From NCBI GenBank assembly GCA_964106645.2, contig OZ067043.1: a stretch of 64,000 nucleotides of DNA; one strand, given 5' to 3'. Each line of letters begins with the position of its first letter. Position 1 is the first letter of the stretch. This document shows positions 31,741 through 38,900 of this stretch, piece by piece. Under the pieces are notes generated by a model. That model was not told the DNA's origin. It was given only the letters and a program-made list of their open reading frames with translations, and made no database searches. Both the position numbers and the translations under genes were made by a program. The DNA is from Podarcis pityusensis (lineage: Eukaryota).

Positions 31741-31859
31741 CACATAAACTTGCTAATCACATTATTGGCATCCCCTTGCTGGGTCTGAGAAAAAAAGGCT
31801 CATCAAGTGTAGCATTCTGCTCTCAGTGTCGCAACAGGATGTCTATGGGAAGCCCGCAA

Positions 31860-32226
31860 AGGACCCCTGGACGGTTAAGTCCAGACAAAGGTGACTATAT
31901 GGTTATGGCACATATCTCGCTTTCAGGCCGAGGGAGCCGGCATTTGTCCACAGACAGCTTTCCGGCTCGTGGCCAGCATGGCTAAACCCTTCTGGCACGA
32001 TGGGACACCATGATGGAAACCAGAGTGCATGGAAACACCTTTTACCTTCCCGCCACAGTGGTAGCGATTTATCTACTTGCACTGGTATGCTTTTGAACTG
32101 CTAGGTTGGCAGAAGCTGGGACAGAGGAACAGGAGCTCACCCCATCGTGTGGATTCGAACCGCCGACCTTCCAATCAGCAAGCCCAAGAGACTTTGTGGT
32201 TTAGACCACAGCGTTACCCGCTCCCT
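31860..32226 (-). mobile_element. Sauria SINE (older copy) upstream of MPL
   Basis: Homologous to 59758-60106; 14-bp TSD TGGGAAGCCC(G/A)CAA. Confidence 0.85.
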
Positions 32227-32464: not shown

Positions 32465-32650
32465 GAACCACCACCACAAGGGCAAGACATACTGCCTATC
32501 TGATCATAGCAGCCTCCAGCCAATGCTGCCACTCTTGCAGGCCATGGCGCAGTGGTTTTGGGCTGGGGAAGTGGTGGGGCCCAGGACTGGAGGAGGCCTT
32601 TACCCAGGCTTCCTGAGCAGCTGGCCTGGCACTTCCCAGATAAGCTTCCC
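32465..32650 (+). promoter_or_regulatory. Putative MPL promoter with ETS, GATA and RUNX motifs
   Basis: ACTTCC (32631) next to AGATAA (32638), CTTCCTG (32609), E-box CAGCTG (32618), ACCACA (~32473); mammalian MPL promoter is GATA1/ETS driven. Confidence 0.5.
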
Positions 32651-32856: not shown

Positions 32857-32950
32857 ATGGCAGTTCCTCTGTGCCTGGTGAGGCCACTGCTTGCCATACT
32901 CCTGCTCATCTCTTTGCCTGTGCTGAACTGTGTCTACATCACAGATGAAG
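32857..32950 (+). CDS. MPL: MPL exon 1 (signal peptide)
   Basis: MAVPLCLVRPLLAILLLISLPVLNC...; G|gtaaga phase 1; an in-frame upstream ATG also exists at 32749. Confidence 0.8.
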
Positions 32951-35900
32951 GTAAGATTACAAACTGCTACTACTGTCCATGGTTTAGGGCAGAGCTTTCC
33001 AAACTTTTCATGTTGGTAACATACTTTTTAGACATTCTTCATTTCACAACACAGTCATTCAGTTTTACTAGCAAACCAGAGATTAAACTAGCCCCTTTCC
33101 TGCCCTGGGAGGAGCTTGGGGTACATTAGCAGAACACACCTACACGCTGCAGCCGACACACTAATGTGTCGCGACACAATTTGGAAAGCTCTGGTTTAGG
33201 GGAAAAGGTGAGGATGAAGCATGGCTTTTGTTACTTTTTTTGTGGCCCTAGAAACCTCATTAGGAAAGCCAGGCAGGTGAACATTCTTGTGGACGAAAGG
33301 CATCTGGGCAGGGGGGATGGGATGGGGCTTTCTGGAAGCACCACAACAACCAGCTTTCCTGGATTAGGGTTTCCAATTTCTGATCAAAAATGCCCTCTAG
33401 GCTTTTGATCACTGTGGCATGCAGATGTCATCAGGCAAGGCTTCTCACAATGCAGCGATGAAAGAAGACACTCTTTTCAAACTATTCTCTACCATGCCCT
33501 TATTAAAACATAACTCTGGACTGTACCATGTGGGATCAGGAAACTTTGGAATAAATGAAGCTCTTCCATACTTGTGGATCAAGGTCCACCTTGGCTGCTG
33601 CAGAAGGAGGGTTAGGAGAAAACCCTTTCATGTCCTATGCCAGGACGAGGCCCAGCACAGAAAACTATAGATCCCAGAACTATAAGTGCTGAAAATTGTA
33701 GCTCTGTTGAGATAAACTACAGTTCCCGGGATTCTTTGGGGAAAGTCCTGTGCTTAACATGTATGGTATATTCACAGCCTCAGAGATCTACCTGCACACC
33801 TCCACCAAAGCGTTTCCTCTGTACATTATTCAGGGCCACCAGTCAACAGAAGAGCAAGGAACATTGGTATGTGGAAAGATGGAATAGGTTACGAAGGCTC
33901 AAAGTGAATGTGGGTACCGAAAGTGCCAAATTGTTTCCTGTCCAGATCAATGCAGTTCTTTACTAGGATCAGCTATTAAGTGCAGTCTTTCCAGATGATG
34001 AGAATTTTCCTCACCACAGCTCTCAATTAGGGAGAAACAAGATCTGACTAGAATTCAGGTTTGTTTTTCCAACACCCGTTATTCTTCAATGTCCTTTGTA
34101 TAGAGTGGTTGTGTTTCCTCCCTTCTTCTGTGGGGGCACCGGGGTGGGGGGACAGGGACATAAAAAAGACACTGACCAAGAGTGCTGTCTATGTTCAAAA
34201 CTTGAATAGCTCATAAGCAGATACACATAACCGCTTGATCAGTGAGCTTTTCAGCTTTTGCTGATGGATATGATACTGTTAGAAATACTACAAGGACAGA
34301 AACCAAAATCTAAAGAAATTCTTCTTTGACTTAGCATGAATCATAAACCTCAAATTGTTTAAGGGTAAGATGTAAAATTATTGACTAAATATATACAGCG
34401 GTACCTCGGGTTACATACGCTTCAGGTTACATACGCTTCAGGTTAAAGACTCCGCTAACCCAGAAATATTACCTCGGGTTAAGAACCTTGCTTCAGGATG
34501 AGAACAGAAATCGTGCTCCGGCGGCACAGCAGCAGCAGGAGGCCCTATTAGCTAAAGTGGTGCTTCAGGTTAAGAACAGTTTCAGGTTAAGAACGGACCT
34601 CTGGAGCGAATTAAGTACTTAACCTGAGGTACCACTGTATAGTATTCAGATTTCACAGATATCCTATGTCCTGCAGTGTTACTTCCCGAACCCTTAATTC
34701 TGATGGTATAATTCATTTTACCTTCTTGCATTGTTTGTTCCTACAGAATTATTGATCCCCTTGATTTCTTTGTTTCCCTCTCAAATCTTTTAAAATTAGG
34801 GCTCCCTCCAGATGTCCTTTTTATTGTGTATTTGTCATTACCCATGATTCTGCCTGCAAAAGTGTCATGGTGAACCTATACTGCTTTGTTTCCAGTCAAT
34901 GCATGTCCCATAGTCTCCTGCTTTCCTTTCTCACTGGGATTCTAGATACAATATTTACCCTTATAAGACACTCCTGAAACACTGTGGGAGGGAAAAGCAG
35001 CTAGTGAATTATTTTCGTGGGGATGGGTTAATGAACCCTGTTACTTCTCCACTCAAAATCTTAGCGTCTTGAGACTACTTTTTTTAAAGTCATTGTTTTC
35101 ATTGCATTTGCGTATAATGTGTAGTTTGCTCCCTTATCTTGCTTCCTCCCACTGTCACTGGGAGTTCTATCTCCCTGGGACAGGAAGCTGCTCCCCCCGC
35201 CCCAAGTTTGCCACAAAACCACATGGCTATTTTGGGATGTTTGTGAACACTTCCTGGCAGCAAATACTTTGGGGTGGTGGTAATCATTAGCTCCCCCTTT
35301 CCCTAATCCTTTCCCAACCCACTCAAACAACTGTGTGGCCAATATGGATGTTCACATAAAAAAACAGAAACAGAATGACAACATTTAGGGTCAGTACCGT
35401 TTGCATTTGTGGGTTAAGAAAATCAGTACTGTTAGATGGATGTGTGGTGTACAAAAATGAAAATACATTATAGAAGGGATGAGGAACCTATGGCCAGGTT
35501 GTTGGACTACAACTCCCATCAGCCCTAAACATTGGCCATGCTGGCTGAACTAATGGGAGGTGGAGTACAACAGGTCCTCATTCTTGCATTATAGAGAAAA
35601 TTAATACTGTTGGGGGGGGAATTTTAATGAGCCACTAAGCTTCACGGCAGAAGGGGGTCATAACAGGGCCAGTGACTGCAGGCTGCACCACCCACCCACC
35701 CCAAGATGCAGGGCAGGGTCTTTGCATGTTACCTGGTACGTACTTATTCAGAGAACTGCACCCAAACATTCAGGTTGGTGCCAAAGAATGAGAGCGTGGA
35801 GGTGCACTTTGAATAACCACAGCCAGCCCCCCACCTTTATTGAGCAACTTCTTGCACCTCACCCCACACCCACTTAATTCAAAATTAACCAACATTATTT

Positions 35901-38900
35901 GATCCCTTCATGTGGCTAACTTTTATCTAGATCATCAGCCGTTCTCCTCAACAGAAACTAGTTTGTCAGCTTCTAAGACTGTATGAACCCCCCACCCCTC
36001 ACCCCATTTGCTCTGCAGTCATCATTATACTCCCACTGCTTGTTTGGGAAGAGGCAAAGCCCACATTATCCACAATCCGTATCTCTCTTGTGGTTTGTTA
36101 TGAAATAAATACTGTGTTTTGGTGCATTTTCCCACACACCTGCTTTGAACCAAATTGAGAAAAAGAGCCACCTAGTTGCATTTCAAGCCAGTGATGTGTA
36201 CACAGCCTAACACACATTTCTCTCCACTGCAGTGTGTCTTCTGGAAATTCTGTCATGCATTTGATAAGGATATTTGATTTTATATCCCTTCCCTCCCCAT
36301 TATCATAGCTACCTCACCCATGTGTTGGCAAACAGGATCTCTGCCCCCCCCCCCCCAAGGCTAACTGTAGCATGGAGTGGGGAAAATTCTGTTGTAATCA
36401 CTAAGGGGAGAAGGGTTAAATTTCACCACCACCACCCCAGCATGCTGTGTTCCCAATGAACATTGCTGCTTGGCACTTGCAATTTTTTAAAAAAACAATG
36501 TTAGAGAAACCATTAGCATCATGCGTAGTTACAGGTAGGTAGTTGTGTTGGTCTGCCGTAGTCAAAACAATTTTTTTAAAACAAATTCTTTCCAGTAGCA
36601 CCTTAGAGACCAACTAAGTGTATCTGAAGAAGTGTGCATGCACATGAAAGCTCATACCAATAACAAACTTAGTTGGTCTCTAAGGTGCTACTGGAAAGGG
36701 GAAAAAATTATTTTGTTTCATCGTGTGTAGTTAGGCTCCTAGAAACATAAGAAGTTTCATTAGAGTAGGCCAAACTATTGGTCTATCTGGCCTGGAACTG
36801 TCCAAAAGTGAAGAAGCATTTCACATCATGCACTACCTGATTTTCTTAGCACACTGAAGAAAGGCCCTACAGGAGTGGTGCCTTCTCCCCTTCTGAAACT
36901 TCCTCACACCCAAAGACTTGAGCATGGCTATAAAACTCTTATTCCAAGCTGACTGGAGCCCTGGAGAGAAGCACAACCCGTGACAGGCTGTGGTGACTTA
37001 CTGGCCATTTCTTACAGCTTGTGCTTGTACAAACACTTGTATTAATCTCTATGACCACAGTTCTATTTGCCATGCACTTGCTTCCTCTCATCTCACAGTC
37101 CAGATGACTTTGGGTATTTGTGGTTACAATTGTCACCCTATTCAGCTNNNNNNNNNNNNNNNNNNNNNNNNNNNNNNNNNNNNNNNNNNNNNNNNNNNNN
37201 NNNNNNNNNNNNNNNNNNNNNNNNNNNNNNNNNNNNNNNNNNNNNNNNNNNNNNNNNNNNNNNNNNNNNNNNNNNNNNNNNNNNNNNNNNNNNNNNNNNG
37301 ATCTATTGGCTGAAACAGCTCAGGACATCTTCTGCTTTTCTCGCACTTTTGAGGATCTCACTTGCTTTTGGGATGAACCAGCACATGTGGATGGGGCATA
37401 TCGGCGCTTCTTCTATACATACAAAGGGTGAGAGGTTTTTATACATAGCTATGATCCATAGTCCAGGCTGTCTGGAAAGTTTCCAGTAGAAGAATACTGC
37501 AGCTCCTTGAGGTTTCCCACTGCCCACTCTCTTCATCTCCACAGAGACAGAAGCCGAGAATGCACTCTGAGGTCAGCAAAGCACAGTGATGGAGGCTGGC
37601 GCCATGTCTGCATCTTCCCCAGGAACCATCAGGATATTCTGCTCTTTGCAGAACTCCACATCGAGGTGTTAGACACCATTAGTAATCACACCACTCGCTC
37701 TCAGGATCTCTCTGTGGCGTCTGTTGGTAAGCCTTCCTTCGGATTTGAGAAGCAAGGAAATGTGGCGTGACATTAAAAACAATTTTTAAACACTTAACAA
37801 TCACAAAACATGTGATGGCTCCTGAAAATATGTATCTCAGGTGTCATCCTTAGGACATGGTCCTAAATCCCACCCACCACTGGCAGGGCTTGTTGAGTGG
37901 TACAGCCATCACTGCATCAGGATTCCACCACTCACAGATATACCATTAGCAAGCTTCCTGTCTGCACACACATTTAGAGGGCAAAAGGGGGACAGCTGAG
38001 TGAAGGGACACCTCTGCCTAATCCAGCCCCCAGCCTGGCAAACAACAACAACCAACAGTACTGAGGATGAGGCCATATGTATCTCCCTGGGAAGGAAGTT
38101 CAAAGGGGTGGGGCACTGGCACCTGCCAGCCAAACAACTCTTGCTGGTGGATCAGGGAGCAGAGCCTGCCCTAAGGATCTCACAGTAAAATCTGAGCATG
38201 AGGAGGAAAGCCAGAGGCAAAGGGAAGGGTGGATAAAGTGGAGGTCACATAAATAAGAAATGAAGTTACACCTACTTAAGCTTCACACTTGAGGATGTGA
38301 CACCATCAAATTCTTGCAAACTTTCATTTCTACATTTGGCTCTGTCCATATGGCTGCCCTTTTCCTAGAGGCTAAGAAGTAGTGCATCCGGCCAGAATGC
38401 GGATGCCTAGATTGACATACCTGTCCCATACCACCAGAGCTTGCCCTTGCTAGCTGGAGAACTGCAGCCCACCTTTCTGCTGCTTTGTTGTTGCGTGCTG
38501 CAGTCCCAAGAAAGCAACCTTGCAGCAGACGCAGCCAAGTCCCCAGCATTCTTGCTTGCCTCTGCAGATTCCTGCACTCCCAGTTGTGACTACCACACAG
38601 AGAAGCATTCCACTGTAAATATATTGCATATACAGGAGAAATGTAACAAATCCACATATTATGTATTTATTAGAACACTACTTGGGGATTTACTGTTGCT
38701 TCAGAGATTGAAACAATGGTAATATTTACTGCACCACTTAAGTGTTGAAATTATATCTTCATCTGTCTTTGTTTGTAAATCCCATAGTTTTCTATCTACG
38801 TTTGTAAATCCCACAATTGTCTATCTATGCTTAGGTCTGATTGCTCCACCAATGAATGTAACAGTGGTGTGGCCTGGAGTGGCACGACAGTTGCACGTAG

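Follow-up and report, generated by a model that had tools for sequence, protein, structure and literature searches.

A hammerhead ribozyme motif seated on a perfect hairpin inside MPL, the thrombopoietin receptor gene, raises the question of whether it acts on the transcript in which it lies or is a by-product of the event that placed it there. The initial annotation of this locus took the motif for a Penelope remnant and proposed that it could affect MPL processing. We addressed this question by comparing the copy in the 64-kb window (the whole stretch of DNA analysed) with its relatives in the same genome.

Two inverted ends of a Penelope-like element in MPL

The peptide encoded by exon 2 identified the host gene, the thrombopoietin receptor being its top match (E=2e-10, vs 3e-4 for EpoR). 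A signal-peptide-like exon upstream places the motif, as far as can be read from sequence, in intron 1 and on the sense strand, in agreement with the initial annotation. A GATA-like site flanked by two ETS-like cores lies ~220 nt upstream of the MPL start codon (window 32629-32648); GATA/ETS pairs are typical of megakaryocyte promoters. The stretch at window 31855-32225 resembles a Sauria-type SINE. A separate repeat at window 34395-34640, which has inverted termini and carries internal repeats of 16-17 nt, also occurs beside copies of the family described below (e.g., L026 and L033), and we take it to resemble a small non-autonomous DNA transposon.

Table 1. Features of the MPL locus and of the insertion; +1 is the first base of hammerhead stem I in family numbering.
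Feature	Position	Strand	Remarks
Likely MPL exon 1 (signal peptide)	32857-32950	+	ATG, hydrophobic frame, GT donor; phase 1 donor at 32951; read from sequence
Left target-site duplication, 15 bp	36517-36531		13/15 identical to right copy, both differences of CpG type; 14/15 in organisms B and C
Inverted arm, tail-bearing	36532-36619	-	Family ~+130 back to +48; includes first codons of parent ORF; aligned to family majority
Perfect inverted repeat, 32 bp	36588-36698		Stretch common to both arms
Sense arm, tailless	36620-36718	+	Family +1 to ~+97, likely transcription start to T-rich tract
Minimal type I hammerhead	36620-36657	+	Stem I 36620-23/36654-57, CUGANGA 36624-30, extra A 36631, stem II 36632-45, GAAA 36646-49, palindromic AGCU
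C11.1 to U (G10.1-U11.1 wobble)	36645	+	CpG-type change; C in 39/46 arms; computed cost 1.5 kcal/mol
Right target-site duplication	36719-36733		Compared with left copy
MPL exon 2	37301-37427	+	Pfam EpoR_lig-bind; thrombopoietin receptor is best PDB match; ~580 nt downstream of insertion

The motif is part of a 187-bp insertion (36532-36718), in which two end pieces of a Penelope-like retroelement lie head to head. The feature first annotated, which corresponds to the perfect inverted repeat in Table 1, is real, but the true extent is larger and includes the whole insertion and the target duplications. As expected of an EN+ Penelope-like element, a 15-bp target-site duplication is present, with 13/15 positions identical. 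The last 6 nt of its left copy (window 36526-36531) also match the tail end of the element, and at loci L002-L029 the target often has a few bases in common with that end. This sharing of bases suggests primer-template pairing at the site where the tail starts.

The two arms of the hairpin (36588-36619 and 36667-36698, 32 nt each) are 100% complementary on re-reading, and enclose the hammerhead as had been described. The long helix does continue stem I, although across a 9-nt bulge (36658-36666) and not flush with it as first thought. The hairpin region is more stable than all of 200 shuffled sequences (folding z-score of -11.9). However, 27 of 50 other two-armed copies also carry a perfect repeat of at least 32 bp, and the hairpin is therefore a by-product of insertion, of ordinary quality. 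Contigs from the flanks enter the element from both sides in three related organisms, A, B and C, so the insertion is common to them and predates their split, which indicates age and not function. Contigs from four DNA runs break within the repeat, none spanning the ribozyme in organisms A, B and C, and no empty-site joint was seen among 15 of the 36 joints listed for them.

The parent family

Searching the same genome with this stretch yielded 2,615 candidates (40 scored), and exact matching found 1,039 copies of the intact 34-nt core and 1,544 of the 3′ segment, with none in reversed controls. The Penelope origin proposed by the initial annotation was borne out: in copies reaching further upstream, the sequence enters a GIY-YIG frame, and the parents carry both RT and GIY-YIG. 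Long copies are organized as pLTR-ORF-pLTR (pseudo-LTRs), with a direct spacing of 3,010 nt in the six fetched (6/6), and full-length parents have a second hammerhead. The parent ORF comprises 910 aa from the Met and matches RVT_1 (E=5e-12), then GIY-YIG, the latter match falling just under the Pfam cut-off in one scan and above it in another. The frame of L214 contains a single CX4CX2C linker, at residue 771, which fits the CX2-5CxxC motif described as the mark of Neptune and Nematis between RT and endonuclease. By its linker, the family is probably an EN+ Penelope-like element of the Neptune/Nematis type; Neptune would be preferred over Nematis because the clades stated to occur in vertebrates are Neptune and Poseidon.

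The ORF starts ~65 nt below the cleavage site, and its first 11-12 codons form the segment that we call the tail. Apart from these first codons, the window copy retains no part of the ORF and is made of pLTR and tail. Pseudo-LTRs are direct in the long copies, and form inverted arms in the window copy and in L194, which has the same two-armed layout with arms of 962 bp. Among the matches listed, all 150 protein matches that were scored show 99-100% identity, which makes one subfamily young; this subfamily (L214-L219), which includes several complete ORFs, is likely still active. In its stem II loop, TT replaces AT and breaks the palindrome. The window copy belongs to an older subfamily. A further, common subfamily (loci L240-L289) has U for C at the cleavage position (window 36653; 11-25% of depth), which yields a longer dimer-helix palindrome. 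The family may already bear a name in Repbase or Dfam, and may be included in the reptile hammerhead alignments of the PMC4209133 supplement.

Arm layout suggests two priming events

Penelope elements have already been described as having inverted 5′ copies, a tail at one end only and a pLTR with a TATA box. To characterize the layout in this family, 87 head-to-head pairs were collected, from which 29 pairs of the best-hit sample (including the window copy) and 8 with anchors more than 260 nt apart were left out. In the 50 remaining pairs, two near-duplicates among them, arm ends were placed by gapped junction fit. The 3′ ends of the arms are bimodal, clustering near +85-100 and +130-140, and the interval between the two clusters is the tail. 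The tail is present in exactly one arm in 47/50 pairs, as it is in the window copy. Among the one-tail pairs, 31/47 are non-nested, 11 are nested and 5 are tied. As the tailless arm extends further 5′ in the 31 non-nested pairs, neither arm is a plain copy of the other; in the window copy as well, each arm holds sequence absent from the other. One-tail, non-nested arms match the behaviour in vitro of the anole Poseidon element PAc, in which both target strands are extended from two start sites.

The strongest alternative would keep the same origin and the same neutrality, and explain the inverted arm by self-priming or fold-back with subsequent trimming, the template possibly being antisense, as proposed for rotifer Penelope elements. 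Palindromic junctions are taken as self-priming in PMC3846280. In our sample, the 11/47 nested pairs fit fold-back as well as they fit double priming, several junctions lie inside the stem II palindrome, and letters departing from the family majority are common to both arms in 10/50 pairs. However, fold-back does not account for the private sequence held by each arm in 31/47 pairs and in the window copy, and folding on stem I predicts a T before the TG, which is seen in 6/30 loci only. We judge this route unlikely, also in view of the arm 5′ ends described below.

Arms stop at the first base of the hammerhead, often after an extra G

We mapped 5′ ends in the first 100 arms with an anchor between +48 and +80, with the proviso that ends placed at palindromic junctions can overshoot. 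Thirty-eight of them begin at -1 to +6, 14 run beyond -138 and one begins at the cleavage site. The commonest stop is +1, the first base of the hammerhead, 31 nt below the TATA box (TATATAAG starts at -31 of the family). For the 39 arms that stop exactly there, a set partly chosen by intact core, the preceding letter is G in 25, A in 10 and C in 4 (p=8e-5), vs G in 5/28 before other stops. Genome-wide, G precedes +1 in 1,177 copies (621 + 556) vs A in 439, G and A being the letters counted and the A count covering cases not preceded by T.

An extra G marks capped, full-length ends of L1, according to PMC11702581. By analogy, the extra G here would be cap-derived and the template a sense, capped RNA. 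Since some of the Gs derive from the target or from the opposite arm (possibly so in L052, L132, L136 and L161), we only infer a cap, and the window copy itself lacks the extra G. The pile-up of stops at +1 below a TATA box, together with the extra G, nevertheless points to a sense, capped template and speaks against fold-back. Searches of open-access text found no title on a cap signature or on twin priming in Penelope elements.

Other sources of the G were considered and rejected: a sister subfamily with G before +1, as 20 + 30 loci have no common upstream sequence, and a splice acceptor at the CAG located just above +1, as those 50 loci have no common upstream exon. In L032, L035, L040, L046, L063, L093 and L244, stuttered short copies of +1 to +12 immediately precede +1, the pattern expected if the polymerase jumps templates repeatedly at the 5′ end of an RNA.

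A small excess of arms starts at the cleavage site

We then asked whether the arms retain a trace of ribozyme cleavage. The best-hit sample had suggested the cleavage site as the usual end point of inverted arms; this was rejected, with 1/100 anchored arms and 3/100 arm ends at this position. Pattern matches for arms starting at +35, the first base after the predicted cut, numbered 62, compared with 26 at +37, 30 at +33 and 22 at +31. At +35, +37 and +33, respectively, 60, 26 and 29 distinct arms were examined, of which ~48, 25 and 23 are truncations. The excess at +35 (p=2e-4) includes 12 junctions with stem I microhomology; without these, p rises to 0.03 and, with a tandem array taken as a single case, to 0.06. 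Both arms end at +35 in four loci (L224, L229, L231 and L349), two of which fit a short palindromic overlap. This small excess may record rare cleavage in vivo, and is to be taken as a hint only. Ends at +35 amount to at most a few percent of those at +1, a scarcity that accords with uncleaved RNA as the main template. The tandem array at L235 (G000:C2:30803740-30803836) consists of ~36-nt units that begin at the predicted cleavage site; a similar repeat at L242 begins at +1.

The hammerhead of the MPL copy is probably inactive

Within the window copy, the motif reads as the initial annotation claimed: the CUGANGA and GAAA boxes, the NUH triplet and stems I and II are all present, and the cut is predicted after 36653. 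It is a minimal type I hammerhead that agrees with the four features described in PMC4209133 except for the G10.1-C11.1 pair, there termed highly conserved. This closing pair is G-U here vs G-C in 39/46 family arms, which supports the earlier proposal of CpG decay at this position, makes an active ribozyme less likely and leaves descent from the family motif unaffected. In these 46 arms, picked regardless of core state, the CpG across C11.1/G12 is altered in 16/46, nine of them at G12, the position described as the general base of the hammerhead. Core positions outside the CpG are slightly less mutated than the rest (5/454 vs 36/1,407, p=0.07). The Rfam scan returned no hammerhead family at E<=10 for this copy, nor for the intact parent, and so has no discriminating power here.

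In PMC4209133, minimal Penelope hammerheads were inactive as monomers and showed little activity as dimers. The motif is the sole hammerhead-pattern match in the window on both strands, and no second hammerhead was found on either strand within these 64 kb with up to 7 mismatches allowed. The four-base AGCU dimer duplex contributes -2.5 kcal/mol. The slightly lower mutation of the non-CpG core points the other way, as does the computed fold, in which stems I and II form with a probability near 0.65, stem I being held by the long helix at 0.57-0.66 and the core largely open. The hammerhead in the MPL intron is likely inactive and neutral. As the 64 kb contain no partner and the G10.1-C11.1 pair has decayed, an effect of the insertion on MPL is unlikely.

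One may instead suppose that this copy was kept or co-opted, the helix propping up a hammerhead that cleaves MPL pre-mRNA with the help of the element's protein or of a partner RNA, or that its stem is edited, so that MPL output is tuned. The sense orientation, the complete core, the stem I held by the helix and the presence of the insertion in organisms A, B and C are compatible with such a role. Moreover, young, ORF-bearing parents could supply the protein, and the protein of PMC11167929 switched on its ribozyme; together with the open core and the held stem I, this makes some cleavage of the intronic copy possible. However, the missing partner, the weak AGCU duplex, the decayed conserved pair and the ordinary repeat all speak against co-option, as does the position of the site in intron 1, ~580 nt before the acceptor and 3.6 kb past the donor. 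We regard co-option as very improbable. The role in MPL processing put forward by the initial annotation is thus not upheld, given thousands of copies, loss of G12 in 9/46 arms, an ordinary repeat and no partner. That annotation had itself stated that many decayed copies with no positional conservation would make the motif neutral debris, which is largely the situation found.

Readings of the hairpin as a precursor of a microRNA, or as a unit spreading like a MITE as a fixed palindrome, can hardly be right: Rfam microRNA models do match the stem (mir-559, 47 bits) and L023 and L025 have a junction identical to that of the window copy, but the matches are those of a generic hairpin, far under gathering thresholds (best 47 vs 95), junctions vary between copies with target duplications of ~10-17 bp, and the arms of long copies continue into RT and GIY-YIG sequence.

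A model for the insertion

The preferred explanation, in which we have good confidence, is a two-armed insertion likely formed by priming of both target strands on a capped RNA, with a hammerhead that is likely inactive and neutral in MPL. Transcription of the parent would begin with the first base of stem I, driven by a TATA promoter located in the pseudo-LTR. The GIY-YIG domain would cut the target with a 15-nt stagger, and the two 3′ ends would then prime at different sites, one at the tail (~+135), the other in the T-rich tract (~+95). The second cDNA would run off the 5′ end of the RNA, the first would halt at +48, and the two cDNA ends would join, possibly through a 3-nt AGT overlap, leaving the 32-bp repeat where their sequence is common. 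Formation of the hairpin and of stems I and II is predicted in the MPL pre-mRNA, whereas stem III would need the second hammerhead that is absent here. Overall, the family junctions speak for double priming on a capped RNA rather than for self-priming on an antisense one, and contain a hint that templates cut by the ribozyme are occasionally used.

A wider reading, which we put forward tentatively and to which we give somewhat less than an even chance, is that the thousands of short copies preserve, as fossils, the course of the Penelope cycle in vivo. The mRNA would start on the first base of the hammerhead, and this capped RNA, still uncut, would serve as template two times, once for each target strand and from two start sites; RNA that the ribozyme had already cut would account for a few percent of the copies. 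If true, this would explain why the ends are inverted, why the tail is found on one side only and why lone hammerheads are so abundant in vertebrate genomes, and would provide the first genomic trace of a Penelope hammerhead firing in vivo. For MPL, the insertion is probably without importance. Perfect hairpins with hammerhead cores are routine insertion products in such genomes, which should serve as a warning. For Penelope biology, this young family, with its thousands of junctions, offers a test bed for the origin of inverted ends and for the part played by the hammerhead.

Comparison with known systems

The motif resembles the minimal metazoan hammerheads of Penelope-like elements (Cervera and De la Pena 2014, PMC4209133) in its 4-bp stem I, the extra nucleotide before stem II, the palindromic 15/16 region, the lack of a stable stem III and the occurrence mostly as single, dispersed copies. 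It departs from them in the window copy, where G10.1-C11.1 is G-U and stem I is lengthened by the insertion-made 32-bp helix. With non-LTR retrozymes (bioRxiv 2026.07.22.740005), it shares a Penelope-related type I hammerhead in a non-coding repeat; these are direct tandems with at least two hammerheads, in contrast to the single hammerhead and inverted arms of the window copy. As direct tandem units each bearing a hammerhead are absent from this copy, identity with a retrozyme was rejected.

As in LINE-1 5′ inversions, head-to-head arms lie within one target duplication. The arms of L1 twin priming are not known to overlap, whereas those described here share sequence, which gives the hairpin, and lack a poly(A) tail. 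The extra G is likewise found at the full-length 5′ junctions of LINE-1 (PMC11702581).

The family also resembles the Neptune/Nematis EN+ elements (bioRxiv 2021.04.23.441226, PMC3846280), which have one ORF with RT then GIY-YIG, a CX2-5CxxC linker and pseudo-LTRs, as well as inverted 5′-truncated copies with a tail of 30-40 bp at one end and a target duplication; compared with their full elements, the window copy has only 187 bp of pLTR and tail. PAc (Frangieh et al. 2024, PMC11167929) belongs to a clade described as having no linker motif, in contrast to the present family. Its ORF starts inside the hammerhead and its RT starts lie 111-118 nt into the ORF, whereas the family ORF begins below the cleavage site. 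In vitro, two RT start sites bound the PAc tail and both target strands are extended, as we infer for the family, and uncleaved RNA is the main template in PAc, as it would be here.
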